Source: a virus
Lineage: Duplodnaviria; Caudoviricetes
IMG/VR virus record: IMGVR_UViG_3300011989_000257
Coordinates: 32,001 to 96,000 of that record
Reading direction: 5' to 3' (one strand)
Length of the DNA stretch: 64,000 nt
Below are positions 4,615-58,875 of this stretch, in pieces. A program made the translations under genes and the position numbers. The notes beneath the pieces are model-generated. The model was given only the letters and a program-made list of their open reading frames with translations, ran no database searches and was not told where the DNA came from. Within the stretch, counting starts at the first letter, position 1. Each line of letters opens with the position of its first letter.

Positions 4615-4649
4615 AAAAAATGGCATTAACCATCATAATTAATGCCATT
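4615..4649 (-). terminator. intrinsic terminator hairpin
   Basis: AATGGCATTAA-9nt-TTAATGCCATT followed by a T-run on the minus strand. Confidence 0.7.
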
Positions 4650-4659
4650 ATATGTTTTT

Positions 4660-13992: not shown

Positions 13993-14019
13993 AATTTTAA
14001 AATTTGTTAAGTTCTATTG

Positions 14020-14051
14020 CAAAGATATACAAAATTTGTTAAAATTCCAAA
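14020..14051 (-). promoter_or_regulatory. Bacteroidota primary-sigma promoter (TTTG-N20-TATCTTTG)
   Basis: Exact -33/-7 consensus; near-identical 37-bp copy at 19907..19943. Confidence 0.8.
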
Positions 14052-14081
14052 AAAATGGGAAGACTTTTTTTGTCCTCCCAT
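14049..14081 (-). terminator. intrinsic terminator
   Basis: ATGGGAGGAC-7nt-GTCTTCCCAT-TTTTTT on the minus strand. Confidence 0.7.
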
Positions 14082-17326: not shown

Positions 17327-17390
17327 AATTTAAATTGTTTTAAAAATATTATTGATGCACACCTGAATATGTGCTTAAAAATTTATATTG

Positions 17391-17422
17391 CAAAGATATA
17401 GAAAAAAAATGTAAAATCCAAA
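17391..17422 (-). promoter_or_regulatory. Bacteroidota primary-sigma promoter driving the ssb-tdk-uvsX operon
   Basis: TTTG-N20-TATCTTTG. Confidence 0.8.
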
Positions 17423-17464
17423 TAAATTCCTAGTTATTTTCCTGTATTTAACTAGGAATTTATT
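17421..17464 (-). terminator. terminator hairpin (16-bp perfect stem)
   Basis: AATAAATTCCTAGTTA-12nt-TAACTAGGAATTTATT. Confidence 0.7.
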
Positions 17465-19888: not shown

Positions 19889-19909
19889 AACACTTTTTAT
19901 CAATTTTTG

Positions 19910-19941
19910 CAAAGATATATAAAAAATGTTAAAATTCCAAA
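19910..19941 (-). promoter_or_regulatory. Bacteroidota primary-sigma promoter
   Basis: TTTG-N20-TATCTTTG. Confidence 0.8.
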
Positions 19942-19943
19942 AA

Positions 19944-22900
19944 TTATTTATGCTTAAATAAGTGGAATTCCATTTGGCATGTACTTTTTGAACGGTAAAC
20001 ATTACAAGTGTCTTGGACAAAATCAGAAACCCAATGTGTGCCATCAAATGCACAAGTATGGAAATGTGAACCTTTCTTACTACTCTGCGGTAATGACCAC
20101 ATTGTACAAATGTCACCCCTCGATGGCTTAATGCTCCCGAAATTGAACTCTTGTTTATTGGTTGTTACTCCTGATACTGCTTCTTTAAATTCAGAGTCAT
20201 TTACTTTTAAATTTCTGCAAACATCCCAAGGATAGTTACCCCAATATTTCCTACTTCCACCAAGGGTATCTCTTAAAGCACGATTTATAACTCCAGTACA
20301 AGTTCCACAACCTCCGTAAGATTGACGTTTCTTTCCTTGCTCTTCGCATATATTTCTTTGCCAATAATGGAGATTATTCACAAACGTATTAAGTTCCCAT
20401 GATTTTGTATTAAAAGGACCATTATTTGAAACAGTATTACTGTTAGTCCAAACACTTGCGCAATCACTTATTGCAATCTCTCCAAACTTTTCAGGGTCAG
20501 ATATTCCTTGTACCAACAGTTTAAAGTTATTCTCGCCATCTGCTTTATAACGTTTGCTGAATGACTTCTTTGCATCATCACTTAAATCTTCAACCTTAAT
20601 CTTGTTATACGTTACATCTTTGTTAGGGTTGGATGCTCTAGTACCCTTGTTATATAGCCAAACCCTCTGCTGATTTGTAGGAACATCCTTTTTATCCAAT
20701 CTAACATCGACACGAACAATAGTATTAACAGCATTGTCATAAACCCAATATAATGCCTTAACGTATCTAAAATATTCTGGTGTATTCAATATACAATCGA
20801 ATACCTTTGAAAGTTTTGGATTGTTATCAGTACTTGCAGCACTAATCATCATGAGTTTATTCTTACTCTCCTTATTTGGAAAATATTCATGTTTTAATTC
20901 AAACTTCATTGATTCCGTATTCTGTGCTGTCTGGTTTATGGCACTGAAGAACGGTTCATAAATATCCTCATTCATCTTACTAATTTCATTATTATCAGTC
21001 ACGGTATTGTCGTAAGCATCATAGAATTGCCTTGCATATTTCTGTCTATCATTATTATGAGATTTATCGCTCTTTTCGTATGATAACTCAAAACTTAATG
21101 CTGCATTTTCTGGAGTTGAACACATTAGAAGTGCATCTTTCGAATAATTTGTTCCTTCATATGTAGAATAATTCTTCTTTTTATCTTTGTTCACTACTTT
21201 ATTAAGTGTATCTCTAAGGAATTGTATTTGGTAATCAACACCTTTTTCTTGTAAACGTTTTTTAACTACGGCAACCCCCAATGATGCTGCAATTTGTCTT
21301 TTTTTCTGGCCATAATCACTTGGAGTATTTTCTAGCAAACAAGTCAATTCACCATACCCATCACGCCATTGGCATAGACCACCAGATATATTGCCCTTAT
21401 CATTACCATTGACAGCAGTATAGTCAAATGTACTAGTTTCAGTCCTCATATTTCCAACTATACCAGCAGCAGCCTTCTTATATTTATCGTCTGCTGTAGC
21501 TAAGTTATCGATATTATAAATAAACTTAGCAATTTTATCCATCAATTCCTTAGCCTTTTGTTTCTCATCTCCACTGAGAGTACCATCTCCACTGAATATA
21601 GGGAACACAGCATATGGGCAGTCATTGTCAGTATTCGCCATTGCATTATTAAATGTAACGCTGTCATTTCCAATATATTGTGTGTCATCACCATCAGAAT
21701 TAATAAAGACATCCTCAACGAATCTATTACCAACTTTTGACATACGGCATCCAGTAAAGGTTGTTGTCATGTTTCCAGGTGTTATGGTATGATTAACCTT
21801 CATAATCATATAAGAGCCTCTAAACATCGGTACGTTCAATAGTACAAAGTACATCATTGGCTGTACCCATGCGCATCCCATCATCTCTACTGTACAAGTA
21901 TATGATTGGGATGTATATAGGTCGAACATGTCTTGTCCTTGAGCACCATTCTTATTTTTGTTCGTAAGCCCTCTTAGTATGGCGTGCTTTGCCTTTATAC
22001 TCTGCTCAGTTTGTATACTGTTCTTGGTGTTTACAGATACCTTCTTGAAGAAACTCTGGTACTGTTTTCCATAAGTCACACCAAATGCTGGAATGCTATA
22101 GAAATTACCACTAGCACCCCTAGTCCTTATCGATGTCGGAGAATTGAATTCATCATTGAGCATGAAACTATCATCAGCATATTCGTTACTACTTACATCT
22201 AATGCCTTTGATGGCTCGTAGGTGTATACTATCACAAAGTCTGAAGCCTTCTTGTTGTTCCCAAATGCCATTGAATATGGCAATGGCTTAAACATGTCTT
22301 CCATTGCGTCTCTTTTTGATAAGTCTATGAAATTCTGTATACATTTGAACATACATCTGTTGTCAGTGTATACGTAACTCAGTAGTGATAGCATATTAGA
22401 TGATATGTCACTATAACTCAATATTGTCTCGATTCTCTCATATATCTTCTTTGGATTCAGCAATAACTTGTCACCAATCTTGTTATAGTATGAGTCGATA
22501 AAATAGAAACGATAGTCTCCATTTCCATCAAAGAACTTCTCATATTTCCAGTCATCAAAATTAGATGTTGGAATCCATTTGTCATATATCTGTTTCAAAT
22601 AGCGATAAAGTTCCATTCTCATCTCGTCTGATGTGTTTGTTGCCTCAGCAGACCTTCTCACCATATTTCCATTCTCATCAGCCTTGTAGTCAACACCTAA
22701 TAGCATATTCAATTCATCAATAAACCCTTCCAAATAGTTTTTGAAAATACCATTGTTTTCAACCTTATAATCACTATATGACAATGGCTTTCTTTCACTA
22801 TTGACAAAATGATTGACATTTCCATTTATCATTAAAACAGGAAGCATCATCTTATTTGTCAAATCCTTAACAAAGGTAGAGTCTTGATTCAACAATGCCC

Positions 22901-43573: not shown

Positions 43574-45604
43574 TTATCTGAACTCGTTAATGCTCCAATG
43601 TACAAGACCATCAACACGAACATGTCCAAAGTAACGGTTGTTCACCATCTTCTTCGCATAACGTGTCATAATACCCTTTACAGGTGCAAAGTTGAATGGA
43701 TTATACATAGTTGGGGTCAACTGCATTGGCACATATGGTGCATAGATGTAACCTGTGTCAAGAAGTGACTTACCCTTATGACCAATAATCATTGACCAGT
43801 GTGGGCTATATGGGTCACGATATACAGTGTAACGTCCACCGAGAGCACCAATCTTCTCAATACCCATGTTGTACTGGTCGCTTTCTGCTGATGCATCTGA
43901 TACATGGAAGTACTCAAGGTTATCAAGCAATGCTGAAATCTCTGAAGATACTACAATGAAGTTAGCACCACCACGAAGTGTAGACTTGTGAATCTGTGCA
44001 GAAATCTGGTTAATCTTAGTCATAAGCTCTTGGTTCCAGTCCTTCTGAGTGTAGTTAGTAGAGAAAGCAGCCATACGTCTCCAACCATTAACATCCCAAC
44101 GTGCCTGCCAAGGTGCGCCCTTACGAAGGTCACGGAGAATTTCACGGTCAATCTCAGCAGCAATCTGCTCTGAAAGGATAGCTGTCAACTCAGCCTCTGC
44201 GTCAATGTTGTGGAATGCAGAAACGTCTTGTGCCAACTCTGGTGACCATGTTGCACGAAGTTTTCTTTCCTCAACTGATACAGTTACTGAATCAAGCTTG
44301 AAGCTAACCTCACCGATTTCGGTCTCAAGCTCAAGTGAATCGTACTGTGCCCAAGCAATCTTGAAGAGCTGTGCAAGATTAGCCTTAGTCTCCTCAGTTG
44401 AACCGCTAGAAATAGCAGCGTCAAGAGCAGCAGCATCAACACCTACATAACCGTCAATTGTACCTGCTTGCTGAACAACTGGTTTAGCGAGGTCAAGCTC
44501 GATGTACATCTTACCCTCAGCATCGCAAGCAGCACCGTACTCTACGATACCCTTACCATATTTCTGAGTAACAACTCTGAAAGGAACTGACTCAAACTTA
44601 CGGAAAGCAGCAGTCTTAACTGTCTCTGAACCAGGAACATTAGCTGCTGGGAGTTCCTTCTGAGTAATAACCTTCAATGAAGCGAGGAATCCTTCAGTGT
44701 CCATTTCGTTTCCGTCAGGACCAGTCAACTTAGCAGCGTTGAATGAAGAGAAACCATCAATCTCAAGGATGACGTTACGTACAGTACCATCGAATCCACT
44801 CTTGAAGTACTTGTTAAGGTTATCAGCACCGAATGGGCGAACACCACCAGGAGTCAAGAACACTGGAATTGCGCTACCAACCTTGATAGTTACCTTACCC
44901 TTTGAGTTGTCATACAAGAAGTCGTTGTAGAACAAGTCGTAAAGTGACTTCTGGAAGTACTGAGTTACCTCAGGACCTGCTTGACGAAGAGCTGTTACAT
45001 GAAGACCCTCAGCCTCTGCACGTGCCTTAGCCTCATCGAAGCTAGTTGCATCTTCGATGGTCTCGTTCAACTGTGGAACGTACCATGAGTTCTTGTCGAG
45101 GTCATTGATTGTCTCATCTGGGAGATAGTATCTTGGCTCAACACGTCCTTCCTTGTTACGGTTAACTCTGTCATATCCCATAAGACCCTTATGACGACCA
45201 GTAGTACCATCAATGATATCACCTGGCTCTGTGCCACCAGTGTAATCTGCTGGGAGTTCCCACTCTCTCTCTGAAGTAACAGGGAGGATGAAGAACAACT
45301 TACCAACAGGAAGGTTCATTGCTTGTACTGAAACGATGTCGTTAGCAAGAAGTTTGCTGAACACACGTCTAATGATAGGGAAAACAACGGTCTCAAATGA
45401 ACCACTGTTATCAGAAGCAGTAGCCTCATAAATCAAGTGCTTTGCTTCATTCTCATACAATGTAGCAACATTCTCCTTGATACCCTCTGGAAGACCCTCT
45501 GTAAAGCCGAGGTTATCCCAACGGTTCTGAATGCTCTCACGTATCTGTTTTTGTGCGTTGTACTCAATATTGCCAACTACACCACTTGATAAAAATTCTT
45601 TCAT
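43574..45604 (-). CDS. major capsid protein, T4 gp23-like, with large insertion
   Basis: FPIIRRVF..LLANDIVSVQAM..PVG, RKLRATWSPELAQDV.AFHNIDAEAEL, GYIYAPYVP, GIMTRY; predicted maturation site IYE60/A. Confidence 0.95.
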   Translation of the reverse strand: MKEFLSSGVVGNIEYNAQKQIRESIQNRWDNLGFTEGLPEGIKENVATLYENEAKHLIYEATASDNSGSFETVVFPIIRRVFSKLLANDIVSVQAMNLPVGKLFFILPVTSEREWELPADYTGGTEPGDIIDGTTGRHKGLMGYDRVNRNKEGRVEPRYYLPDETINDLDKNSWYVPQLNETIEDATSFDEAKARAEAEGLHVTALRQAGPEVTQYFQKSLYDLFYNDFLYDNSKGKVTIKVGSAIPVFLTPGGVRPFGADNLNKYFKSGFDGTVRNVILEIDGFSSFNAAKLTGPDGNEMDTEGFLASLKVITQKELPAANVPGSETVKTAAFRKFESVPFRVVTQKYGKGIVEYGAACDAEGKMYIELDLAKPVVQQAGTIDGYVGVDAAALDAAISSGSTEETKANLAQLFKIAWAQYDSLELETEIGEVSFKLDSVTVSVEERKLRATWSPELAQDVSAFHNIDAEAELTAILSEQIAAEIDREILRDLRKGAPWQARWDVNGWRRMAAFSTNYTQKDWNQELMTKINQISAQIHKSTLRGGANFIVVSSEISALLDNLEYFHVSDASAESDQYNMGIEKIGALGGRYTVYRDPYSPHWSMIIGHKGKSLLDTGYIYAPYVPMQLTPTMYNPFNFAPVKGIMTRYAKKMVNNRYFGHVRVDGLVHWSINEFR

Positions 45605-45675: not shown

Positions 45676-47169
45676 TTATTTCATCATTCTGTGCATTAAA
45701 TCAAGAGATTCCATAACATCTGGTGACTTATAGATAGGTGTCTCATTGATTTTCTTTGAACCCTCAACTGTAAGACTCTTGTCCTCAGTGATGTTCATTT
45801 TGTTGGTTTTCTTGAGTTCACGACTGATTGACTCATAGAGTGCCTTTGATGCATCAATAGTCTTTCCTTCGTTCTTAAATCTGTTGATAATTTCTTTCTT
45901 CTCGTCTTGAGAAGTTGTATTCTCAGAAACCAACTTGATAATCTGTGCAAGATTATGATTAGTTACAGATACCTTCTTCAACTGCTCCATAAGGTCTGTC
46001 AATGTAGATTTAAGTTCCTTGTTTTCCTCAAGAACTGCATTCGCTCTCTTCATGAAGCTCTCGTTTGTCGGATTGCCTTCATACTCTCCTGCGGTTGAAA
46101 CATGATGCTGGTTCATTGGGGAATTCTTCTTTGCCTTAATAGGGTTATGAGATTTTGTTCCCATCATTCTTCCATGAGCACCCATTCTACCTCCGCATTC
46201 TGCTGCTGACTCTTCAAGATTCTCTTCCTCTTCAAGTTGTTTACCTTTTTCAGCATTGAATGGTTTATCTGCTTTATTTTTCTTACCTGGGTATCCAGAC
46301 CAAGGCTTCTCTGAGCCTTTTGGTACACCTGCATCCCAATCGTTTACATTTTTACCTGGCTCTGACATACCTGGATTTGTCATCACATCCTTTTTCTGAT
46401 AATTGTCAGTGTAGCCAACGTTTGAATCATACTCTAGTACGAGTTCAAACATCCTTTCTGTTGATTCATTCATATCATCCATGTCATTATTAAAATCATC
46501 TTCTGCACCGAAATCATCAGCACCTTTGTCATCAGTGAGAACTGTGTCATCACTTGGTTCAGATGCTGCAACACCAGTTGCTTCACCCTCATCGTCAAGC
46601 TTGATTAGGTACTCAGCTCCAGTTTCATTGTCTTGAATGTTCACATTTCCGCTGTCATCTTTATGTACAAGGATTTGGTCATCATTCTTCATTAATTTGT
46701 AAACCTTTACGATTTCCTCGTCTTCCGCATTTGTAAAGTCATACTCATCGTCTGATACCTTATATTTATCAAACTCTGCCCAGTCATCGCCACCTTCGCC
46801 TTCAACTGCTCCGTCATCGATAGATTCTCCTTCAGCAGCACCATCAGTATCTGACTCGCCACCTTCGTTTTCTCCACCTTCTACATCGCCTTCTGAAGAC
46901 TCCATCCCAGTGTCTGCGGATGCTTGACCATCGTCAATAGCATCGCTAGATTCTGCATCGTTTGTAATATCAGAACTAGTATCTTCCACTTCACCCTCTT
47001 CGTAGTCCTTGTCATCGTCCTCAGACAATAACTTGGCATATGTATCACGCACAGCCTCACCCAAAAGAGCCTTGACTGCGCTCTCAGTATTTTCCTTCAA
47101 AGAATTTGCGAGTGTGTTGTAATCCAATAAAGATTCTCTAACTACTTTGCTTCTAATATTTTTGCTCAT
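45676..47169 (-). CDS. prohead scaffold/core protein (gp22-like position), highly acidic
   Basis: Directly upstream of MCP; acidic disordered middle, C-terminal coiled coil, many (I/L/V)xE sites. Confidence 0.7.
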   Translation of the reverse strand: MSKNIRSKVVRESLLDYNTLANSLKENTESAVKALLGEAVRDTYAKLLSEDDDKDYEEGEVEDTSSDITNDAESSDAIDDGQASADTGMESSEGDVEGGENEGGESDTDGAAEGESIDDGAVEGEGGDDWAEFDKYKVSDDEYDFTNAEDEEIVKVYKLMKNDDQILVHKDDSGNVNIQDNETGAEYLIKLDDEGEATGVAASEPSDDTVLTDDKGADDFGAEDDFNNDMDDMNESTERMFELVLEYDSNVGYTDNYQKKDVMTNPGMSEPGKNVNDWDAGVPKGSEKPWSGYPGKKNKADKPFNAEKGKQLEEEENLEESAAECGGRMGAHGRMMGTKSHNPIKAKKNSPMNQHHVSTAGEYEGNPTNESFMKRANAVLEENKELKSTLTDLMEQLKKVSVTNHNLAQIIKLVSENTTSQDEKKEIINRFKNEGKTIDASKALYESISRELKKTNKMNITEDKSLTVEGSKKINETPIYKSPDVMESLDLMHRMMK

Positions 47170-47359
47170 TTAGAAAATAGATTTAATACATTATTTTTTA
47201 ATATAAATATAGATTAAATACCAAAAAAATTCATAAAATGCCTAAAATAATACATTTATGAGCAATTTATGACTTATATTTGATATCTAATTAATAAATA
47301 TTTGGATGAGAATGAATATTTATAGTAAATTTAAAAATAAAAACTATATATTTGCAAAT

Positions 47360-48067
47360 ATGATGAAACAGGATAATTTAGAAATAATAAAGGAAGGAAA
47401 AACAGGACATGGCATACTAATTGAAAATGATGGTTTCATATCATTGGATTTTGGTAAGAATAACCATCAGTTGAAAGAGGATATTAGTGAAAAAGGATGG
47501 TTTGTGCCTTACCCATTTGTTGTGGATGCTGTATTTCAGAAATTTGGAATTAAAAATGCAAACGGTAGAATTTACCCAGAGTCAATTCTAAAAAGAGAAG
47601 TTGAAAAATACCAGAATATGATTGCAGAAAGGATGGCGTTGGGAGAACTAAACCATCCAGCAGAGTCAACAATCGACTTGGGTAGAATAGCAATCAATAT
47701 TGTTGAACTTCATTGGGAGGGAGCTACTCTAGTAGGAAAGCTTGAAATCAACACGACTGAAGGATTTAGAAAGTATGGTATTGTAAGTACTCGTGGTGAC
47801 GATATGGCTAATCTTATTATAAATGGATATAAAATCGGTGTATCATCAAGAGGTGTTGGTTCTGTTGAACAAAAACTTGGACAATATATCGTAGGGGATG
47901 ACTTCGAACTTATATGTTGGGATGTAGTATCAAGTCCATCTACGCCAGGAGCCTATGTAGGAAAACCAGAGGAATTGCAACAATATATTGAAAGTAATAC
48001 TAGTAATAGTGACAAGAATTCAATTAATGAAAAGATTAATAAGATTAAAAATATCCTAAAGTCATAA
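47360..48067 (+). CDS. prohead maturation protease, T4 gp21-like
   Basis: KNANGRIYP, LGELNHP, IGVSSRGVGS, DFELICWDVVSSPSTPGA; start reassigned to ATG 47360. Confidence 0.9.
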   Translation: MMKQDNLEIIKEGKTGHGILIENDGFISLDFGKNNHQLKEDISEKGWFVPYPFVVDAVFQKFGIKNANGRIYPESILKREVEKYQNMIAERMALGELNHPAESTIDLGRIAINIVELHWEGATLVGKLEINTTEGFRKYGIVSTRGDDMANLIINGYKIGVSSRGVGSVEQKLGQYIVGDDFELICWDVVSSPSTPGAYVGKPEELQQYIESNTSNSDKNSINEKINKIKNILKS

Positions 48068-48071
48068 TATT

Positions 48072-48470
48072 ATGAAAAAAGTTATTAGATTAACCGAAAG
48101 CGATTTGCATGGTCTGATAAATGAATCGGTCACTAGAATAATAAATGAGATTGGTGTTTATCCAGATGGACAAACTGATTTATTCTTCGACCAAGACCAA
48201 GTTGACGAATACCGTTCATCTGCAAATGGTAGAGCAATCGAGGCTTTACTGAGGGCTGAGAGAGAATGCGGATGGAGACATATGAATTCAAAGGATATGG
48301 GGCGTTATACAGAGTATAAATGTTATCCTATTAGTGAGTACACATCAAAGGATAGACAAACCTTTATGGAAAGAATCAAAGCTTATGCTCCAGTGAAAGA
48401 TAACATAGAATTCGTATGCGTAAGGAATACATACATTAAAAGTTTTACAGTAAGAATTAAGAACATCTAA
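48072..48470 (+). CDS. IRLTES-leader cargo protein
   Basis: MKKVIRLTESDLHGLINESVTRIINE followed by a unique domain. Confidence 0.7.
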   Translation: MKKVIRLTESDLHGLINESVTRIINEIGVYPDGQTDLFFDQDQVDEYRSSANGRAIEALLRAERECGWRHMNSKDMGRYTEYKCYPISEYTSKDRQTFMERIKAYAPVKDNIEFVCVRNTYIKSFTVRIKNI

Positions 48471-48510: not shown

Positions 48511-48843
48511 TTATCCCATTGGTGGGAAGTCATCGTAATTGGCTTCAAGGTCAATTCTATCTTGCGCCCAATCTTCCATATCATCACCATTTACAATATC
48601 ATCTTGATAATTATCATTGTGAGTTCGGTCAAGAGGCTCTCCAGTTATTCCAAAATCGTGGTCATTTGTCATACCGTTAAATGGTGTGACTTCCTCTTCT
48701 TTCTCAAATGGTTGGTAGTTATTCAATACGTTGTCATTCTCACGCCAATCATTTCCCAATACGTCTTCCCTTATTATTCTTTTAACGGAATTCTCTATAA
48801 TACCTTTTAATTCTGATTCCGTAAGTCTTATAATTTTCTTCAT
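48511..48843 (-). CDS. IRLTES-leader cargo protein (acidic)
   Basis: MKKIIRLTESELKGIIENSVKRIIRE; late motif at 48865. Confidence 0.7.
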   Translation of the reverse strand: MKKIIRLTESELKGIIENSVKRIIREDVLGNDWRENDNVLNNYQPFEKEEEVTPFNGMTNDHDFGITGEPLDRTHNDNYQDDIVNGDDMEDWAQDRIDLEANYDDFPPMG

Positions 48844-48874: not shown

Positions 48875-49312
48875 TTATCTTTTTGTTTTGTTTATTGTAA
48901 AACCATTTTCTTTGAAGGAATACACCAAATTATTTGCTATTGTGCTTATTTTTCTTTCCAACAAATCATTAAGGTCTTTGAGATGCTTCTTATTCTTTTC
49001 ATTCTGACGCAAATAGAAGTCAAATGATAAGAATTTTTTGTCATTAGGTGATAACCCTTCAGTGCTTATGTCAAAATCTAATATGAGACGATTATCAAAA
49101 TTTATACCATCTATTAAAAATGATTTTATGTTTTTCTTCATACGTTCCTCTATGCCATCTATAACATTATCGTAATCCATTTCCCTTTGCGGTGAAACCC
49201 AACATTTTCCACTTATATAAATGACTTGCGGATTGTTCCTATTAACAGTACCATATTTTAACGATATATGGTTGCACACATCCAATTTATACTCTTTGTT
49301 TAATCTTTTCAT
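48875..49312 (-). CDS. hypothetical protein of the head cluster
   Basis: 145-aa ORF. Confidence 0.65.
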   Translation of the reverse strand: MKRLNKEYKLDVCNHISLKYGTVNRNNPQVIYISGKCWVSPQREMDYDNVIDGIEERMKKNIKSFLIDGINFDNRLILDFDISTEGLSPNDKKFLSFDFYLRQNEKNKKHLKDLNDLLERKISTIANNLVYSFKENGFTINKTKR

Positions 49313-49389: not shown

Positions 49390-49417
49390 AAGAGCAACCA
49401 TTGTTATGATTGCTCTT
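49390..49417 (-). terminator. cassette terminator, copy 1
   Basis: AAGAGCAATCA-TAACAA-TGGTTGCTCTT on the minus strand, then T-rich. Confidence 0.8.
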
Positions 49418-49423
49418 GAACTT

Positions 49424-49918
49424 TTATTGCCAACCCTTACCTTTTACGTATTTTGAGTCACCCCTATCGAATTTTCCAATTTCGTCAGTTGCTTTTTGAT
49501 ATTTGTCAATAGTGTTTTTTGTTGGTTTCATTTTGGAACGAGGATTAAATGCATGAGAACCATCTTTATCTTGTCTTGGGTAATATCCAGCATGCATTTG
49601 TGCATGCATTGGAGTCCAACGTCCCATTCCTCCATAAGCATTTCCAAATTGAGTAACTGTACCTTTTACGTCTTGGTGATAAGGTAAACCATTTTCATCA
49701 TATGTACCATCAAGTTCGTCATGTCCAAATTTGTCATTAAACCTATCTGTTGCAAATTGAGCTAAGTCTTCAGCTTTATCATCTTCCCCTTGCTCTGCTC
49801 GTTTCTTTGCAGCATTCGCATATGTTTTCCAATCAAGTTCTGTGAGTACCCTATTCACAGACTCTTTCACAATATTGTGAAGGTCACTCTCCGTTAATCT
49901 TATAAGTTTTTTATTCAT
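49424..49918 (-). CDS. IRLTES-leader cargo protein
   Basis: MNKKLIRLTESDLHNIVKESVNRVLTE followed by a unique domain. Confidence 0.75.
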   Translation of the reverse strand: MNKKLIRLTESDLHNIVKESVNRVLTELDWKTYANAAKKRAEQGEDDKAEDLAQFATDRFNDKFGHDELDGTYDENGLPYHQDVKGTVTQFGNAYGGMGRWTPMHAQMHAGYYPRQDKDGSHAFNPRSKMKPTKNTIDKYQKATDEIGKFDRGDSKYVKGKGWQ

Positions 49919-49960
49919 ATTATAATACGTATTTAGTTCGTTATTTTAATAATAAATATC
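49893..49960 (-). repeat. late promoter/5'UTR/leader repeat, copy 1
   Basis: Near-identical to 56062..56128. Confidence 0.9.
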
Positions 49961-49974
49961 AGATAGATTTTGCT

Positions 49975-51588
49975 TTAATCATCCATTAAGATATCCCTTA
50001 TCTCAAGTAATTTTGCGATATCCTTAACAATTGTTTCTTTATTAAAAGTCATTTCATTAATCTGGTTACTCAAGCCCTTGAGTTCAACATTTTCTGAATC
50101 TTCTTTTAGCATGTCGTTAATCTTATCTATGCATTCATTCTTGAACTTGTTAAACAATTTCTCTTTTCTTTGTTCAGCTATTGGTGTTCTGAAATCAGTT
50201 ATTTGCTGAACAAATGATAGCTCAGATTCATTAAGGTTATTCTTGAGTTTTTCCTCAAACTCTTCAATTAATTCATCTGGAGTTTTTCCTTCATTTATTT
50301 TATCTGATTTATGTGCATCCATCCATTTGCAAACAGCATCGTAACTCTCAGCAAGAGGAATCATATTGTTTGTTGTCCTCTTTGTTGTCAATATGACATC
50401 ACCATTCTCGTATAGTTTCATCGATTCCTCATCAACGAACTCACTTGGTTTAATGCCACTCTCAATCATAACGTTTCTAAGTTTCTTGTTTGAAGCCTTT
50501 ACAGTCTTGACATCAATGTCCTCGCAAACAATTTTTGCAAGGTCTGCAAGAACAGTCTTTGAACCAATTATTTTTGCATGATTCTCATTATACTGTTCCT
50601 TAATTACGTTGTAGAAATTAAATTGGCTTCTAAGATTCTTGTCCTCCTTAATGGTCTTTATGACATTCCTTACAGCCTTTTTGTTTGATTTGATAAGAGT
50701 TGGAAGCTCACTTTCAAATATATGGTTTAGAACACCAAAATTAGTTGTGTTCATTTCCTCCATTAATTCATCTTCATGTTTGCTTTCCTCTATTGCTTCA
50801 TTAAGCATGTCATTAACATATTCATATGCCTTATAATCACCTTTCTTAAGCGCCTCAGACATTATGTTAATATAATTTGAAAATTCTTCTTGATGATTTC
50901 TATTTTTCATAATTATAATATTGTTTTCTTTCTTATGTTCTTTTCCTTCTTGATATAATGTTGCATTTCTCTGGGCAAGCGTTTTCCATCCTTCCTTTTC
51001 TTTTTGTACTTGCCAAGATTTTTCTGCTTCATTATATCTTTTTATTATATCAGCTACTTTGGGGTCTATTTTAAATTCTTCATTCATTTCATCATACCCA
51101 TCATCACCATCCATATTGGAATTAATATATTCAGCAACTGTTGGGTTTTTTTCGAAGGCACTTTGTGAATCTTCTACAACTAAAAGATATTTCATAGGGT
51201 CAATTCCAAGTTCATTAACAATTTTTCTAAGCATTCTAGAACTTGGCAAATACCAAAATGCCATAAAACTAGGATATTTATCAGTATGGGTATTCCATAT
51301 TCTTCCACGACAATATGACTTCTCATAGCATTGCCTTTCAATCCAATTAATATATGTATCCTTTATATGACTGATTGCTTTGCCCATTAACTTCTTTGCC
51401 GCTTGTGCTGCAATCATAAGATGGGTTGTTGAACCAGTCATGAACAGATACTCATTATCTAACGATATTGGGAAATAACCAAAAGATGTGGCTATTTTGC
51501 TATGCCACCCCCAATCTGTCTTTGTAACGGTATCATATACATTATCTGGTGTACCTTCGAAATATTCTAATATTCTTTTATTTTTCAT
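49975..51588 (-). CDS. head-cluster protein, apparent fusion of an N-terminal domain to a helical protein starting at Met 50910
   Basis: 537 aa; A-rich initiation-like sequence in frame before the internal ATG. Confidence 0.65.
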   Translation of the reverse strand: MKNKRILEYFEGTPDNVYDTVTKTDWGWHSKIATSFGYFPISLDNEYLFMTGSTTHLMIAAQAAKKLMGKAISHIKDTYINWIERQCYEKSYCRGRIWNTHTDKYPSFMAFWYLPSSRMLRKIVNELGIDPMKYLLVVEDSQSAFEKNPTVAEYINSNMDGDDGYDEMNEEFKIDPKVADIIKRYNEAEKSWQVQKEKEGWKTLAQRNATLYQEGKEHKKENNIIIMKNRNHQEEFSNYINIMSEALKKGDYKAYEYVNDMLNEAIEESKHEDELMEEMNTTNFGVLNHIFESELPTLIKSNKKAVRNVIKTIKEDKNLRSQFNFYNVIKEQYNENHAKIIGSKTVLADLAKIVCEDIDVKTVKASNKKLRNVMIESGIKPSEFVDEESMKLYENGDVILTTKRTTNNMIPLAESYDAVCKWMDAHKSDKINEGKTPDELIEEFEEKLKNNLNESELSFVQQITDFRTPIAEQRKEKLFNKFKNECIDKINDMLKEDSENVELKGLSNQINEMTFNKETIVKDIAKLLEIRDILMDD

Positions 51589-51624
51589 CTAACCATTATT
51601 TCCAATAAATATCATGTTTAATAG

Positions 51625-51655
51625 AAAAAAGCGTGACATCAGTTGTCACGCTTCT
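51625..51655 (-). terminator. terminator after portal
   Basis: AAGCGTGACA-TCAGT-TGTCACGCTT. Confidence 0.8.
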
Positions 51656-51660
51656 ATTCT

Positions 51661-53697
51661 TTAATTCTTATCAACGAATTTCCCAAGTTCATCAATCATC
51701 TTGTCAAAGTCCTCATTAACCATTAAGGCATCACTGTCGTATATGTCAGCACGTTTATACTCTGTTTCCATGTGTTTACCCTTTCTCTCGTTCACTCTTG
51801 ATAGATACTCATTGAAAAGAATATCAAGTTTATCATTCTGCTCATTTATGATAGGTTTGTTAGAATGAATAGATTCCATTGGTGCATTTGGGTCATTTCC
51901 CATATCAGCAGTTGGCATTGAGCCTTCATTGCCACCCATCATTATGGTATCATCTCCAGGACCGCCAATATCACTTCCATCCATATTAGGGGCATCTCCC
52001 ATAGGAGGTGGTGGTGCTCCCATTCCGCCTCCAGGACCTCCACTACCATCCATGCCGCCTTGTCCACCTTGCATATCATCCATATACTCAGCTCCAGGTT
52101 CGCCATAGATTCTATCGACAGTATCAAATATACCTGTCTTCTTGATAATCTGAGTTGTCTTCTCAAGTTCAGCCGCAATACCCTTTTCAAGACGTATCTC
52201 TTCGAGATTTTCCTTAATTTCCTTCTCAGACCACTTCATAATCTGTTTCAATGCACGTGTCTGGGACATAACTGGAAGACCATTTCCTGGGTCGCTAACA
52301 GCATCCCTTACAGCATCAATCTTCTTCTGCATATTCTCAATCTCAAGCTGTTCAGCTTGTGTTGATGGATTATTCATTGTCAATGAGAAATTTGTTAATT
52401 CATCATTAAACCCTAACAAAAACAAATGAATTGATGCAACTTTTGTAAGTTCCATTAAGAATGCTTGCTGTATTCTGTTAACTAATCTAGTAAAACGAAT
52501 ATCCATAAGTGCAAGGTTCTTGCCATCCCCAGCAGCTTCTTCAAAGTTAAGAAATGACTTAGGTATTCTTAACGCAGTCAGTACTTTATTCTGTACGAAC
52601 TTGATATCATCCATTGCCGTAAGGTTTTGTCCTGCTGAAAGAGTATCAATAGGGTTTGGGGCATTTTCATCACGTACTGGTAAGAATACATCTTGGTCAA
52701 ATGCAAGCAAATTCTTTCTTAAGTCAATTTGACCAGTCATTGGGTCAATAATTGGAGTTCTCTTAAATTGATTTGCAATTTGTTCAACATATGCTTGCAC
52801 ATCAGCATCATCAATTGCGCCAACAAATATCTTATACACCCTACGTTCAATGGAACGTTCAAGACGATATATAAGCATCATATCTTCCATTAAGCTCAGC
52901 ATCCTCCAATGTCTTCTAGCAGCATTTAATGCTGATACGCCATACGGGAGATATAATGAGTTAGTCAATAGTCTAAAATGTGCAATCTGCCAATCTCTAA
53001 ATGGAACTTGCGAATTATTATCATCCAACCATATAAACTGAGTAGAAAGGTCAGCATCATCCTTTGTAATCCCGTTTACAGCAATTGAAGCTCCAGCACC
53101 ATATGGATTCTGTATACCATTCTCAATTCTCTCCATATTAAACACTGGAAGTTGCTTCCACCCCTTAACGCCATTCTTATGGTCAACATCTAATAGCATA
53201 AACTGATTTCCGTATTTACACATTGCACGGATAATCATAGGGGCAGTCAATTGTATATTCAATCTATTAACAAATAAATCTTCAAGGATACTCTTTATTC
53301 TGTCAGATTTGGAATATACATTGACTATATTACCTTTGTCTCCAGCAATACATGCTTCCTCCGCATATGTGTCAAGTGCAGCACCAATTTCTGGGAATGC
53401 ATCCATTAAATCTGCATCACGATACATAAGTTTAATGTTATTAAGTCCAGCATATGCAGTAACAGATAGGTTAACATTTGCTTTAACCCACCTATCTTTT
53501 AAATATTTATTTTGTCGTAGCTCTAATTTCTTTTGTATATAATCTTCTCTATCAGTGGTTCTATATAGTACATCATTATCATTGCCTTGAGACATATCAT
53601 ATGAGTTTATATGAGGCTCAATGGCAGAAGTAGGCGATGACCAATTACCAGTTATAGCTTTATCTAGAGCTTGAAATACAGTACTCTTCTTTGCCAT
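51661..53697 (-). CDS. portal protein, T4 gp20-like
   Basis: PEIGAALD, IAHFRL, MEDMMLIYRLERSIERRVYKIFVG, IDTLSAGQNL, ALRIPKSFL, DIRF. Confidence 0.92.
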   Translation of the reverse strand: MAKKSTVFQALDKAITGNWSSPTSAIEPHINSYDMSQGNDNDVLYRTTDREDYIQKKLELRQNKYLKDRWVKANVNLSVTAYAGLNNIKLMYRDADLMDAFPEIGAALDTYAEEACIAGDKGNIVNVYSKSDRIKSILEDLFVNRLNIQLTAPMIIRAMCKYGNQFMLLDVDHKNGVKGWKQLPVFNMERIENGIQNPYGAGASIAVNGITKDDADLSTQFIWLDDNNSQVPFRDWQIAHFRLLTNSLYLPYGVSALNAARRHWRMLSLMEDMMLIYRLERSIERRVYKIFVGAIDDADVQAYVEQIANQFKRTPIIDPMTGQIDLRKNLLAFDQDVFLPVRDENAPNPIDTLSAGQNLTAMDDIKFVQNKVLTALRIPKSFLNFEEAAGDGKNLALMDIRFTRLVNRIQQAFLMELTKVASIHLFLLGFNDELTNFSLTMNNPSTQAEQLEIENMQKKIDAVRDAVSDPGNGLPVMSQTRALKQIMKWSEKEIKENLEEIRLEKGIAAELEKTTQIIKKTGIFDTVDRIYGEPGAEYMDDMQGGQGGMDGSGGPGGGMGAPPPPMGDAPNMDGSDIGGPGDDTIMMGGNEGSMPTADMGNDPNAPMESIHSNKPIINEQNDKLDILFNEYLSRVNERKGKHMETEYKRADIYDSDALMVNEDFDKMIDELGKFVDKN

Positions 53698-53750
53698 ATT
53701 ATATTTTCTTTAAAAAATAATGATTATCCTATAAATATCAAGATAAAACA

Positions 53751-53774
53751 AAAGCGAGTGTTTTTCACTCGCTT
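53751..53774 (-). terminator. terminator after terminase
   Basis: AAGCGAGTG-TTTTT-CACTCGCTT. Confidence 0.8.
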
Positions 53775-53776
53775 AA

Positions 53777-55651
53777 TTATTTCAAGCCGCCAAACACCCA
53801 CATATGAGTTCCATTAATTACATTGGTTTTAGGAAAACTTTTCTGTGTATAAAACGGTAAGCCACTCTTTGGGGTAATTGTATAGCCATCCCTCAATTTA
53901 GACCTATGGGTATTCATAGACCCACCCATCATATAAGCATTTAATATTGCTTTATCTTTTTTCTGGGTATTCTGTATTCTATTAACAGTATATTGCATAA
54001 CAAATAGTCCCATTGCAAGAGAACATAAAGTATCATCATGAGCACCCTCCATATGGTCAATACGAGCAGTTTCACCCTTAAAAATCCAAGTATTCAATTC
54101 ATTAATCACTCTTACTGAACGAATTTTAAACTCATTGTTACGAACCATTCCTGCAAAATTAGATAAAACTGGATATCTATTTCCTTGAAAATGAAATCCT
54201 GGAAGTTTATCAGTATATCCATCGTAATTCTTTGTTGACCTTTGAACCATGTAGGTTTTCTGATTCATATCTTCATAATACATGTTCTTGTATCCCATAT
54301 TTAGCATTGTTATAATGGCCGCATCTCCTTGTCCGCCAGTAGCATCAACAACAACAAATGCATCATTATACATGGTTGCATATTGATAAGCAATAGCACC
54401 AATATCATCCCCAAGCTTCTTGCCAACATACTCAGCAACTTGTTCAATGATTGGCATCCCGTTTTCATCACGTCCATCCATGTCTATTATCTCAATTGCT
54501 GTACGGTCAGCAGCAGTTCCTCTGCTAGGGTCAATTGAGCAGATATATCTGTGACCATCGATTGGTTTTTTCCAGAACCAAGTTTCCTCACACAATGGGT
54601 CGATAAAATCATCAAGTGGCTCTCTTACGTTAAACCTTTCTTGCATCTCAATATATCTTGCTGCAACCACATTATCGTTTGAACCCATGAATGACACATC
54701 AAGTTCTTGGGCAATCTTCATTTCGTCATTGTTAAATGAATGGCACATATCCTCATACCAATCAGAAGTTGGTTTCCATCCATCATGCTCTAACTTTGCC
54801 CAACGTTCTTCGTCATATTTTACCCCTCCTTCGTTGTCAATTATTAAATCAGCATCATATTCCCATTCATTGGTTTCCTCATTTTTCCTCTTCCATACAA
54901 GATGTTTATTGAAACGAGGGTCTTGATACCAACGAAATTGTACTGCTGTAAAATTGTTCTCATGAGCCAATGCTTGACGGTAAATGTTATAATACAATGC
55001 ATCCATACCATTAGGCGTACTTACAATTACAGTCTTTGAATTTGGATTTGATGCCATTGTCGCAGCAGCAGTTGTATAAACTGAGATACCATCCTCGATG
55101 AATGCCGCCTCATCAAGAATTAGAGTACCTACTGCTGATATACCACGAGCAGCATTTGGTCCACTAGCACGAGCAATAACTCTACATCCATTAAATAATT
55201 TCAATTCACTTTTTGCATCTTTAACGAAAATAGATTTGAGGTTTTTTTCTGAATTCGAATCAGTTGAAAAATATTCTGGTCCCCACATCCATCGTGGAAC
55301 TTGTTCAAGGAAATCTCTAACCTTAATGATAATTTCATTAGCTTGGTCTAGTTTGTTTGCAATACAAAGTATAATCTCTGGAGATTCCTTCGATGCAAAT
55401 GCACATTGTGCAGCAGCCCATGCACTTGACAATGTTGTTATACCACATTGTCTTGGCTTAATTGCAATCACATTATTATGTTCAGCAAGTGCTTTAAGGA
55501 ATGCCCTCTGCCTTGGAAAACAATGGAATTGTGTTTTCTTACCTTTCATAGCATTAAAGGTAGAGAAATATTTTTCTATGAATGTAATTCTAGATTTATC
55601 AGCATAGCATAAAGCATAATCCCTCTGGGCTTCTTTATAATCAAAAATCAT
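53777..55651 (-). CDS. terminase large subunit, T4 gp17-like
   Basis: KPRQCGITT, LILDEAAF, VSTPNG, QELDVSF, SIDPSRG, HDDT. Confidence 0.95.
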   Translation of the reverse strand: MIFDYKEAQRDYALCYADKSRITFIEKYFSTFNAMKGKKTQFHCFPRQRAFLKALAEHNNVIAIKPRQCGITTLSSAWAAAQCAFASKESPEIILCIANKLDQANEIIIKVRDFLEQVPRWMWGPEYFSTDSNSEKNLKSIFVKDAKSELKLFNGCRVIARASGPNAARGISAVGTLILDEAAFIEDGISVYTTAAATMASNPNSKTVIVSTPNGMDALYYNIYRQALAHENNFTAVQFRWYQDPRFNKHLVWKRKNEETNEWEYDADLIIDNEGGVKYDEERWAKLEHDGWKPTSDWYEDMCHSFNNDEMKIAQELDVSFMGSNDNVVAARYIEMQERFNVREPLDDFIDPLCEETWFWKKPIDGHRYICSIDPSRGTAADRTAIEIIDMDGRDENGMPIIEQVAEYVGKKLGDDIGAIAYQYATMYNDAFVVVDATGGQGDAAIITMLNMGYKNMYYEDMNQKTYMVQRSTKNYDGYTDKLPGFHFQGNRYPVLSNFAGMVRNNEFKIRSVRVINELNTWIFKGETARIDHMEGAHDDTLCSLAMGLFVMQYTVNRIQNTQKKDKAILNAYMMGGSMNTHRSKLRDGYTITPKSGLPFYTQKSFPKTNVINGTHMWVFGGLK

Positions 55652-55680
55652 GTTCTTTTATTTTATTTTCTCATTATTTA

Positions 55681-55712
55681 CAAATATATTTAAAAAATAT
55701 TATAATTCCAAA
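55681..55712 (-). promoter_or_regulatory. host-type promoter upstream of terminase (in addition to the late motif at 55768)
   Basis: TTTG-N20-TATATTTG. Confidence 0.6.
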
Positions 55713-55788
55713 CAAAAATCAGGTAAATTTAAATAAATATTACAATATTTCGAAAAGTTATTCATTTATAAATATTTACAAACAAAAA

Positions 55789-55816
55789 AAGAGCAACCAA
55801 CAGTGTGATTGCTCTT
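55789..55816 (-). terminator. cassette terminator, copy 2
   Basis: AAGAGCAATCA-CACTGT-TGGTTGCTCTT then TTTTT; stem identical to 49390..49417. Confidence 0.85.
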
Positions 55817-55826
55817 ATACATTACA

Positions 55827-56087
55827 TCATCTTCGAGGATATGGAATGTTCCCTTCTTTATAGATTTTCACTGTAACGATAGTATCATTACTAGGATATA
55901 CGTTAAAACCGTTTTGGTTTCTATCATAGTCTAACCCACTTTGAGTTAAAACGTCTTCAATCTTATCTGCTAGCATAGAAGCAACTCCCATACCTTCATC
56001 AAATCCTTCTTTCACTATTTTATTCACTGATTCTTTCACGATTCTATGAAGGTCTTGTTCTGTTAATCTTATAAGTTTCTTATTCAT
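55827..56087 (-). CDS. IRLTES-leader cargo protein
   Basis: MNKKLIRLTEQDLHRIVKESVNKIVKE followed by a unique ~60-aa domain. Confidence 0.75.
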   Translation of the reverse strand: MNKKLIRLTEQDLHRIVKESVNKIVKEGFDEGMGVASMLADKIEDVLTQSGLDYDRNQNGFNVYPSNDTIVTVKIYKEGNIPYPRR

Positions 56088-56128
56088 ATTATAATACGTA
56101 TTAATTCGTTATTTTAATAATAAATATC
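56062..56128 (-). repeat. late promoter/5'UTR/leader repeat, copy 2
   Basis: Near-identical to 49893..49960. Confidence 0.9.
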
Positions 56129-56138
56129 GTCAAGATAT

Positions 56139-57815
56139 TCAATTATTTTGTCTTAGCATTGCCATATAGCACATATCATCATGATATACATAAATATTTG
56201 GGTTTTGCGCCAATTTTTCATACACCTTTGCTATATGTTCTTTATTTATCCTTCTACCTTCGCCACTGTATATTGCACCGAACTCATAAATAAGTTTTGT
56301 ATATATCTTTGGTGCTAAACCCATATGTTGTATCCCATCATTCAAAATGATATGTATTTGAAGCATTGGCACTCTTTCCTCTGGACTGATTCTAATCTTA
56401 ACGCTCTGTGCCATAAGTAGAATCATCTGTCTTGGCATTATCTCGCCATTGATAGTTACAATCAAGTCCTCAGTGACACCATTAACATTGCCCTCAAGGA
56501 AATCAATGTTTTCTACCGTTGCAGACTGTACCAATTGCTGGTAATATTCTATTGGTTTCTGAGGTTCTGCCTCATATTGCCCCATTGTATCAGTATCATT
56601 GCTTTCTTCAATCACGTCACCTTCAGAGCTATCTGAATCAATTTCATATCCATTCGTCTCAGCCCCACTGAAATAAGAATCTTTAATTAAAGATTTGTCA
56701 ATATTCTTGGCATTTATTCTGTTGGTGAATTGCTGATATCCGTTGTCATACTCTGCATCCTTCATCAATTTGTCAAGTAACTCATTTCCTCTATTAGTAT
56801 TTGAAAGGATTTCCTTTATAGTTATACTAAACTCTTCATTTGATTGCCTAATGAGATTTATAAACATGTATGGTATCATATTAGTGTCCTCTACACGCCC
56901 AAATATTTTATTCCATAATGTGACACCAAAACGCATATCCCAAGGCTCTGCAAGCACAAAATCAGCCTTTTTGACAACAAATACAGCTTTTTCCTTATCC
57001 TCTGGTAATCCATGTGCTGAAAACAATTCAAACAATCCTTTAATTGTTTCTTGAAGTAATAATGGGAAAACTATTCCTTGTGAATTAATTGTAGTTTTCT
57101 CACCAACACCCCCAAGATGCACTTCAACATATGAGCCTTGCATTGGATTTATATCACTCATTTCTTCTTTTTTAGTGAATAAAAGATAATCATTGATAGT
57201 AACTATTTTCATATACAATGGTATAAGGTCTCTGTTGATTCTATCAATATCCTCTACATATAATCCTAATATTTTTGAATATGTATATGCAGCACCTTGT
57301 ATCAATGAATTAATGAAACGTCTCTTTTCAACAGCCTTGTCAAACAACTCAATATCAGATACATCATCGAATGTATATGTTATTTTATCATCTGATTCTG
57401 GTTTCAACCTTATTGCATTCTTAAATTTTACCTTATCTACCAATATACATTTAAGATTAAGCATTTCCTCTGGAATTGCAAACAATCGATTTATAGCATT
57501 TTCACAAATCTTTTCAAGTGTGTCCCTTATTGGGGTTTCCATCTCTTTGCATATCTTAAGTGTACTGCTCAGTTCAGACATAAGGTAGTCTTCGTCAAGG
57601 CTTTCCAAACCCAATTCCATTATTGCATCACATACTTCATTAAATCTCTCTTTAAGTATAGTATAGTCAAAAGGATAGTCACCACCACTAGGGAACATAC
57701 TACTATCCCCCAATGATGTCTCATGCGCTTTCACACTCTTGAATAAAAACTGAGGTAAAAGTCTCTTATTAAATACGTTAGCAATTGTATCTTCTTTTAG
57801 ATATATCTTTCTCAT
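56139..57815 (-). CDS. head-cluster protein with appended C-terminal GNAT-like domain
   Basis: Helical N-terminal part; acidic linker with VIEE/S; LQIHIILNDGIQHMGLAPKIY resembles GNAT motif A (Q/RxxGxA). Confidence 0.55.
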   Translation of the reverse strand: MRKIYLKEDTIANVFNKRLLPQFLFKSVKAHETSLGDSSMFPSGGDYPFDYTILKERFNEVCDAIMELGLESLDEDYLMSELSSTLKICKEMETPIRDTLEKICENAINRLFAIPEEMLNLKCILVDKVKFKNAIRLKPESDDKITYTFDDVSDIELFDKAVEKRRFINSLIQGAAYTYSKILGLYVEDIDRINRDLIPLYMKIVTINDYLLFTKKEEMSDINPMQGSYVEVHLGGVGEKTTINSQGIVFPLLLQETIKGLFELFSAHGLPEDKEKAVFVVKKADFVLAEPWDMRFGVTLWNKIFGRVEDTNMIPYMFINLIRQSNEEFSITIKEILSNTNRGNELLDKLMKDAEYDNGYQQFTNRINAKNIDKSLIKDSYFSGAETNGYEIDSDSSEGDVIEESNDTDTMGQYEAEPQKPIEYYQQLVQSATVENIDFLEGNVNGVTEDLIVTINGEIMPRQMILLMAQSVKIRISPEERVPMLQIHIILNDGIQHMGLAPKIYTKLIYEFGAIYSGEGRRINKEHIAKVYEKLAQNPNIYVYHDDMCYMAMLRQNN

Positions 57816-58353: not shown

Positions 58354-58875
58354 TTATTTAAAATATGGAGATTGGAATGGTGTCAAAGGTTGATTCCTAT
58401 ATTCCTTTGGCATTACTTTCTCTGGTCTCTTCGTGCCTTCATAATCATTCAAAACATCGTTTATAACCTCATCGATTACACCCTTATAATTGAATGTTGA
58501 TTCCATTGGCATTCCACCATCTTGAGGGGCTGCATTCGAATCATCTGCAATGCTTTTTGCATATTTAACAACTGCTGCCTTATCCTCTGCCGACATTCCA
58601 TCAACAATGTTATTCAATTCATCATCTTCTGGATTTTCAGCACCCATTGCATTTGGGTCTCCACCACCCATAGGGTTTTGGTCACTCATTGCATTTGGGT
58701 CATCCATAGGAGGTTCGCCACCGCCCATTGGGTCATTCATCCCCATATCATCAGTACCCGTTGGTGGCATTGGAGCATTATCTAAATCACCCATGCCATC
58801 CATACCGCCACCTAGGTTACTGTTTGGTATCTCTAACTTAGTTGGTCTTTCTTCGAAGAAAGATTCAGTTAGATT
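58354..58875 (-). CDS. -1 frame extension of 58869..60554 (Gly/Met/Pro-rich)
   Basis: Frame open from the A10 run as NLTESFFEERPTKLEIPNSNLGGGMDG...; no start codon before 58803. Confidence 0.65.
   Translation of the reverse strand, partial: NLTESFFEERPTKLEIPNSNLGGGMDGMGDLDNAPMPPTGTDDMGMNDPMGGGEPPMDDPNAMSDQNPMGGGDPNAMGAENPEDDELNNIVDGMSAEDKAAVVKYAKSIADDSNAAPQDGGMPMESTFNYKGVIDEVINDVLNDYEGTKRPEKVMPKEYRNQPLTPFQSPYFK

Follow-up and report, generated by a model that had tools for sequence, protein, structure and literature searches.

Two genes in the head cluster of a rumen-type jumbo phage belong to a large leader family whose payloads are replaced between conserved flanks

Why should a phage place the same beginning and the same end around two unrelated protein payloads? 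The question is raised by two genes, here called geneA and geneB, in the genome of a virus (Duplodnaviria; Caudoviricetes) held as IMG/VR record IMGVR_UViG_3300011989_000257. The window, by which we mean the whole stretch of 64,000 nucleotides that we analysed (bases 32001-96000 of a 412,514-bp virus record; G+C 34.5%; CheckV completeness 100%), belongs to a rumen-type jumbo phage, and the region concerned is a T4-type head module on the minus strand. The original prediction, made from the letters alone, took the two genes for homologous, late-expressed cassettes with a common promoter, 5' untranslated region (UTR), leader, and terminator stem, whose different payloads could be swapped or moved by recombination. 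Our analysis makes it probable that geneA and geneB are accessory members of a large family of late genes encoding capsid-targeted, protease-trimmed cargo, and that their conserved ends serve as recombination points.

Results

geneA and geneB Share Their Ends

Of 68 aligned positions, 65 are the same in the segments 49893-49960 and 56062-56128 (minus strand), which run from the promoter through the 5'UTR into the first codons; the differences amount to one UTR mismatch, one 1-nt indel, and one synonymous change. The 24-mer GATATTTATTATTAAAATAACGAA, with which both segments start, occurs exactly twice in the window, where shuffles give an expectation of zero. The original prediction had described near-identical segments of ~68 bp; the likeness is actually longer, running from the promoter to codon 27 (103/125 nt), and BLASTP and hhalign align the two proteins over residues 1-27 alone. 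Past residue 27, profile-profile comparison (hhalign) finds no homology between the payloads of 137 and 59 residues, in keeping with the dissimilarity noted at the outset, and no profile homology that would make the pair a simple duplication. At the 3' ends, the terminators have, as predicted, an identical 11-bp stem (AAGAGCAATCA/TGGTTGCTCTT) and different 6-nt loops (TAACAA in geneA, CACTGT in geneB), with folding free energies of -15.4 kcal/mol for geneA and -13.7 kcal/mol for geneB and a U-run after each. Each unit sits between core genes: slot A, from g537 to g145, holds geneA, and slot B, from g558 to the large terminase gene (TerL), holds geneB, and both pairs of bounding genes are kept in all relatives (Table 1).

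AlphaFold2 (AF2) models geneA as three helices, a four-stranded sheet, and a C-terminal helix, and geneB as one helix and a three-stranded sheet. Foldseek found no significant match for either fold in the PDB, a VIA-wide fold search with geneA gave none either (best Z 5.0), the ESM Atlas returned unnamed clusters only, and no PHROG or Pfam family was found for either protein at E <= 0.01-0.1. Metagenomes hold 460 proteins homologous to geneA; the corresponding search with geneB returned 308 proteins, mostly covered over the leader only and including 8 full-length homologues, and 11 contigs are recorded as carrying a protein with 99% identity to geneB.

The Leader Marks a Large Gene Family

The pair is real but not alone. 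A six-frame scan combined with a leader hidden Markov model finds the leader on 12 genes of this genome, with 13 leader modules, and 4 of these genes lie in the window (geneA, geneB, 48072-48470, and 48511-48843). We sampled the family in 190 loci, mostly rumen-type metagenome and IMG/VR contigs, several of them of 340-412 kb, and obtained 259 distinct leader proteins, 234 with the leader at the N terminus and 25 with an internal one. The complete N-terminal leader genes number 221 and fall into ~127 payload groups; their median length is 125 aa, and 60% of the payloads are acidic.

Outside the window, at genome 152316-154115 on the minus strand (L191:6317-8116), a gene adjoining that of a family-B DNA polymerase encodes a 599-aa protein whose N-terminal domain is Dps-like (PHROG 858) and which contains the leader module twice internally; it may be a cleavable multi-domain cargo protein.

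Payloads Are Replaced between Conserved Flanks

We compared the two slots across 27 related loci (TerL 77-88% identical). Payload content varies at both, and fixed orthologous payloads are not seen. Of 20 relatives, 12 have nothing in slot B (78-152 bp); in the remainder the slot is taken up by a leader gene, by g558 with a long extension, or by genes of 171 to 2166 aa. The leader payloads found there are of 107 aa, distantly related to that of geneB, and of 119 aa, unrelated to it. Slot A is empty in 4 loci and elsewhere is occupied by leader genes with other payloads (one or two, of 72 to 182 aa) or by other genes; a gene of ~600 aa sometimes accompanies the leader genes. The gap between the portal gene and g537 is never filled in relatives.

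The exchange of payloads between conserved flanks that had been proposed is borne out by three arrangements. In slot B of L030, a 412,435-bp contig, a geneA-type payload (183 aa) lies between geneB flanks of 84-100% identity, which comprise the g558 end, promoter, UTR, and leader, and the terminator with identical loop together with ~100 nt beyond it. In slot B of L028, the payload matches that of geneA at 406/411 nt (98.8%), as against 62/84 nt (74%) in the leader; the flanks are unrelated, and the adjoining g558 and TerL show 78-83% DNA identity. Because the payload is so much closer than the leader or the core genes, these alignments identify a recent transfer between slots, with breakpoints at the leader end and the stop codon. 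In L076, the promoter, UTR, leader, and terminator of geneA (with the same loop) surround an unrelated 197-aa payload in another neighbourhood. geneA itself is mosaic in this sense, with a payload in common with a paralog at genome 96072-96761 and flanks in common with geneB.

The whole sample contains 11 pairs in which both flanks are kept around unrelated payloads and 50 in which the 5' flank is kept, and 3 of 25 pairs of near-identical payloads have diverged leaders. The breakpoints fall where the leader ends and, on the 3' side, close to or at the stop codon and terminator. A codon comparison of geneA, geneB, and the 96072 paralog yielded counts too small to place a crossover inside the leader. 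As these alignments show, the conserved ends behave at the DNA level as a recombination portal, with payloads replaced between unchanged flanks.

Two further features of the compared loci concern TerL. The gap between TerL and the portal gene, 82 bp here, holds open reading frames (ORFs) of 261-994 aa in L008:2734-3597, L011:3517-5145, L021:1661-4645, and L025:1039-1824, which have no Pfam match and constitute a third variable slot, one without leader genes. At L028:1888-4941 the TerL match is in two pieces (1888-3012 and 4150-4941) separated by ~1.1 kb of unrelated sequence; an intron, an intein, or a gene inserted there could explain the split.

Leader Conservation Ends at a Protease-Type Site

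The leader consensus is M-N-K-K-[L/I]-I-R-L-T-E-S-D-L-H-x-I-V-K-E-S-V-x-[R/K]-[I/V]-[L/I]-x-E, with Leu (or Ile) at P3 and Glu at P1 near-invariant at both E10 and E27. Information content is 3.69 bits at E27, falls to 0.78 at the next residue, and stays at ~0.3-0.5 thereafter, and in ~92% of members conservation stops exactly behind the [L/I]-x-E site. The 23 well-conserved residues form one amphipathic helix in AF2 models; in the models of both geneA and geneB, the leader forms a helix of its own, modelled with lower confidence and standing clear of the payload; in geneA, residues 22-25 form a hinge. A literature search on the motif string gave no match. In one family gene, at L013:15006-15371, the conserved block ends ...KRVIRLTE, the IRLTE motif thus appearing again at the second cleavage-type site.

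Since all six Leu codons and both Ser codon families (TCN and AGY) are used at conserved leader positions, codon usage indicates that the target of selection is the peptide rather than the RNA. An RNA-level cause of the conservation is ruled out, as synonymous codons vary freely and the UTR is predicted to be unstructured (for geneA, fold free energy -1.2, z 0.63). A signal peptide is ruled out as well, the leader being charged and amphipathic, without a hydrophobic core.

Expression Signals

The motif ATATTTAT lies 10-50 nt upstream of ORF starts at 52 of 170 sites, compared with 10 of 170 for its reverse complement, and is found ahead of the genes for the major capsid protein (MCP), scaffold, and portal, g537, g561, geneA, geneB, and 48511-48843. 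Because it is strongly oriented and stands ahead of head genes, the natural reading is that it is a late promoter, and geneA and geneB would then be expressed late, as originally proposed. Within this genome the UTR type with the palindrome AATACGTATT is restricted to geneA and geneB; in relatives, geneA-type UTRs precede 29 genes of 22 payload groups, and across the wider sample 41 genes of 32 payload groups, at 40 loci, combine this promoter and UTR with an MNKKLIRL start.

The search for flanks elsewhere that had been suggested as a check also recovers the terminator stem after a third family gene: the genome has four GAGCAAYCA-type terminators, of which three follow leader-family genes, and among the 24 distinct copies in all loci 13 are directly 3' of a family gene. 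Hairpin stabilities range from -13.7 to -15.9 kcal/mol. A ATATTTAT motif follows 12 nt beyond the geneB terminator and ~12-20 nt beyond its counterparts in L001 and L004; none follows the geneA terminator.

Outside the window, at genome 6081-6494 on the minus strand (L190), a gene encodes a 137-aa protein in which a DUF3008 domain is followed by an internal leader module; it has the same terminator, GAGCAATCA/TGGTTGCTC, with the 5' arm within the last codons of the gene.

The Head-Gene Cluster

The genes around the two slots and the parts of geneA and geneB are collected in Table 1. The first 60 residues of the MCP contain five [L/I]-x-E sites, the last of which immediately precedes the conserved core. 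The capsid protein has 676 aa, and ~250 additional residues separate its N-terminal and main Gp23-homologous parts.

Table 1. Genes and signals of the head cluster, with positions in the window (pLDDT, predicted local distance difference test; pTM, predicted template modelling score)
Feature	Position	Strand	Detail
geneA	49424-49918	-	164 aa; 27-aa leader and 137-aa payload; between g537 and g145
geneA late-type promoter motif	49952-49960	-	GATATTTAT, exact match
geneA 5'UTR	49919-49951	-	contains the 10-nt palindrome AATACGTATT; near identical to geneB UTR
geneA leader, codons 1-27	49838-49918	-	MNKKLIRLTESDLHNIVKESVNRVLTE; [L/I]-x-E sites at E10 and E27
geneA payload, 137 aa and stop	49424-49837	-	predicted folded domain; AF2 pLDDT 78, pTM 0.73
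geneA intrinsic terminator	49390-49417	-	hairpin and U-run; stem common with geneB
geneB	55827-56087	-	86 aa; 27-aa leader and 59-aa payload; between g558 and TerL
geneB late-type promoter motif	56120-56128	-	GATATTTAT
geneB 5'UTR	56088-56119	-	by alignment to geneA UTR
geneB leader, codons 1-27	56007-56087	-	MNKKLIRLTEQDLHRIVKESVNKIVKE
geneB payload, 59 aa and stop	55827-56006	-	AF2 pLDDT 72.8
geneB intrinsic terminator	55789-55816	-	hairpin and U-run; identical, including the loop, in L030
Third leader-family gene	48072-48470	+	132 aa; starts 4 nt past the protease gene
Fourth leader-family gene	48511-48843	-	110 aa; very acidic payload; at this position in 5/16 related loci covering it
gp23-type MCP	43574-45604	-	Pfam Gp23, E 2.5e-73
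Candidate scaffold (gp22 position)	45676-47169	-	497 aa, acidic; between protease and MCP; from composition
T4 gp21-type prohead protease (Peptidase_S77)	47306-48067	+	Pfam, E 1.3e-25
g145, downstream bound of slot A	48875-49312	-	conserved in relatives
g537, head-cluster gene, upstream bound of slot A	49975-51588	-	conserved in relatives
Portal protein	51661-53697	-	PHROG 213, E 2.4e-61
TerL	53777-55651	-	PHROG 2, E 2.2e-38
g558, upstream bound of slot B	56139-57815	-	conserved in relatives

Two sets of repeats were seen in the window. A family at 14009-14056, 17380-17427, 19899-19946, and 55670-55717, reading TATATCTTTGCAA or TATATTTGTAAA on the minus strand, has one copy just upstream of TerL, past the geneB terminator. 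Because these repeats fit the TAnnTTTG -7 motif of Bacteroidota promoters, they suggest a second, host-type promoter class and a Bacteroidota host. The other set, at 18252-18498 and 58625-58701 (84-92% identity), is common to ORF 17728-18594 and gene 58354-58803, which are 40 kb apart; the latter encodes a 149-aa product high in Gly, Pro, Met, Asp, and Asn.

Discussion

What could hold the ends of these genes constant while their payloads differ? The common envelope around a free payload starts with a putative late promoter and a 5'UTR that is rich in A and U and predicted to be unstructured; the 27-residue amphipathic leader follows, and a GAGCAAYCA-stem terminator often closes the unit. [L/I]-x-E is the cutting rule of the T4 gp21 head protease, and here the gene of a gp21-type protease lies next to the family genes and is co-transcribed with one family member, whose gene starts 4 nt after it. 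In T4, diverse internal proteins (IPs) have a capsid targeting sequence (CTS) as their common part, which directs them to the scaffolding core before gp21 cuts it off (PMC3012670, PMC9026906, PMC5694885); the first 10 residues of IPIII suffice for targeting, and its processing needs residues 8 and 10 (PMC3012670, PMC9026906). In the leader described here, residues 8 and 10 are L8 and E10, and a second such site, at E27, closes the conserved block. The leader would accordingly be read as a capsid-targeting propeptide trimmed by the prohead protease: it would carry the protein into the prohead core, the neighbouring protease would remove it at E10 and E27, and the payload, as in T4, would end up inside the head and be delivered together with the DNA. 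The envelope would at the same time permit homologous recombination between co-infecting relatives or paralogous loci, most simply by a first crossover in the ~125-nt promoter-UTR-leader block and a second at or near the short terminator homology. A RecA/UvsX-like match, weak and below the family cut-off (E 8.5e-5), is present at 15113-15304 of the window, in ORF 14267-15457.

The closest known system, by function, is the hypervariable T4 IP locus, as the original prediction had suggested. The T4 internal proteins (IPI, IPII, IPIII, and Alt) are likewise small, unrelated proteins with a common short N terminus that ends in a gp21 motif; a gp21-type protease and T4-type head genes are encoded in both cases, the set varies among related phages, and expression is apparently late. 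The five [L/I]-x-E sites at the N terminus of the MCP also resemble the multiply cut propeptide of T4 gp23. T-even phages have a polymorphic IP locus (Mullaney and Black 1996; Repoila et al. 1994, via PMC3012670, PMC9026906, and PMC4122927). The leader differs from the T4 CTS in having 27 residues, two candidate sites, and no recognizable likeness to it; the family is far larger (12 genes per genome and ~127 payload groups sampled), its members lie inside the head cluster between core genes, and the module is also found within longer proteins. No sequence homology to T4 IP or CTS families was detected in PHROG, Pfam, or a comparison of the leader with 50,697 phage records. The system would work like the T4 internal proteins without being related to them in sequence.

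At the DNA level, the arrangement recalls the promoter/stem-loop (PeSL) cassettes of T4-type phages (Arbiol et al. 2010, PMC2839356; Comeau et al. 2014, PMC4122927), in which variable ORFan genes lie between a short kept promoter and a terminator hairpin, and related genomes differ by indels and replacements at these elements. Here too, a stem-loop terminator followed by a promoter is present after geneB and its L001 and L004 counterparts, and the motifs lie at indel and replacement boundaries. The PeSL analogy drawn in the original prediction holds for this likeness but not for the definition, because a late-type promoter (ATATTTAT) stands in place of a sigma-70 early one and because coding sequence, including ~80 nt of leader, makes up most of the 5' homology; in addition, the units occupy a structural cluster, which PeSLs usually avoid. 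The cassettes thus differ from both T4 internal proteins and PeSLs in scale and in their position between core head genes. In the giant phages phiKZ, 201phi2-1, and SPN3US, a gp21-related protease cuts many head proteins after Glu, and the SPN3US paralogs gp53 and gp54 have identical N termini and are otherwise diverged (PMC5694885, PMC10052503). The phiKZ-type propeptides differ from the present leader in that they mostly exceed 100 residues and are specific to paralog groups, rather than being one short tag on many payloads. Integron gene cassettes and encapsulin cargo-loading peptides also let interchangeable payloads enter a fixed context by way of a short kept element; unlike integrons, the envelope comes with neither an integrase nor an attC site, and encapsulin tags are C-terminal and uncleaved.

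Several observations weigh against a leader-tagged, exchangeable capsid cargo. Neither the region nor the leader has a relative in 50,697 phage records (megablast, tblastn), which leaves no cultured relative with a leader, and some family members lie outside structural modules, adjoining DNA polymerase and glycosyltransferase genes. [L/I]-x-E is a frequent tripeptide at this composition, and the conserved stretch continues for 17 residues past the first L-x-E site, exceeding the T4 CTS. On the side of exchange, the comparison loci are all metagenome assemblies, L028 is a single 5.8-kb contig, and the 3' homology is so short (~27 nt) that the 3' breakpoints may be illegitimate rather than homologous. 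Finally, the internal position of the module in 25 of the 259 proteins, with two copies in the Dps-like protein, means that it could be a functional helix and not a removable tag.

Pursued further, this last point would make the leader a working part of the mature proteins, for docking, oligomerisation, or nucleic-acid binding, on late proteins that are not necessarily packaged. The concentration of 23 well-conserved residues in one amphipathic helix and the several members outside the head cluster fit such a role; the abrupt end of conservation after [L/I]-x-E, the unpacked state of the helix in the models, and the co-transcription of one member with the prohead protease do not, and the internal copies are bounded by x-x-E sites, as cleavable linkers would be. 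We therefore regard a working helix as unlikely. We think it distinctly less probable still that the units are autonomously mobile, either as excised circles akin to PeSL mini-circles or driven by neighbouring homing endonucleases: neither slot of this genome contains an endonuclease ORF, and nothing in the envelope resembles a recombinase site, even though direct repeats of promoter-leader and terminator bracket each payload and PeSLs offer a precedent (PMC2839356). Candidate homing endonucleases do adjoin slot-B cassettes in relatives: genes in which DUF723 and treble-clef zinc-ribbon modules recur separate the leader gene from TerL (L004:8857-10002, L006:1996-2961), remnants are seen in L001 and L028, and such genes may stimulate exchange. 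The window has one DUF723/treble-clef gene, at 5221-6354 on the minus strand and away from the slots, whose modules are four tandem 159-nt repeats (5590-6321).

Simple duplication of one gene followed by fast divergence of the payload, with no exchange, would account for the common promoter, UTR, leader, and terminator, and the models of both payloads include a helix followed by a beta-meander. It is nevertheless very improbable, being already contradicted by the discordant identities in our alignments: profile similarity ends at residue 27, the geneA payload is homologous to that of another paralog with different flanks, the L028 payload in the other slot is far closer to geneA than is its leader, and L030 and L076 show replacement between kept flanks. 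The mosaics might, lastly, be chimeras produced by metagenome assembly at the repeated leader and terminator, given that all comparison sequences are assembled contigs. This we find hardly credible, because exact common runs at the junctions are at most ~17 nt, with leaders differing by ~20-25%, and because like discordance recurs on many independent contigs, some of at least 400 kb; the protein 99% identical to geneB, on its 11 contigs, also argues against it.

With exchangeable capsid cargo as the favored explanation, a broader extension is possible, if doubtful: the leader may be a general capsid-loading tag across a large, uncultivated clade of T4-type jumbo phages from rumen and gut, marking hundreds of unrelated injected proteins (likely counter-defence and takeover effectors), and the envelope may be a dedicated exchange system, integron-like in effect but acting via homologous recombination, that trades capsid cargo between loci and genomes.

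The breakpoints are unusually clean, with flanks 84-100% identical around replaced payloads and one payload moved between slots at 98.8%, and a short portable tag with a matching protease could serve protein packaging, as the T4 CTS has. Should the leader prove to be a capsid-loading tag, a 27-residue pattern would be enough to find hundreds of proteins that jumbo phages of Bacteroidota-type hosts in rumen and gut may inject. To our knowledge, almost nothing of the biology of such phages has been described, and injected phage proteins are the first weapons against host defences. The finding would, if true, extend the cargo shuffling of T4 internal proteins and PeSLs from a few coliphages to a distant, uncultivated clade.

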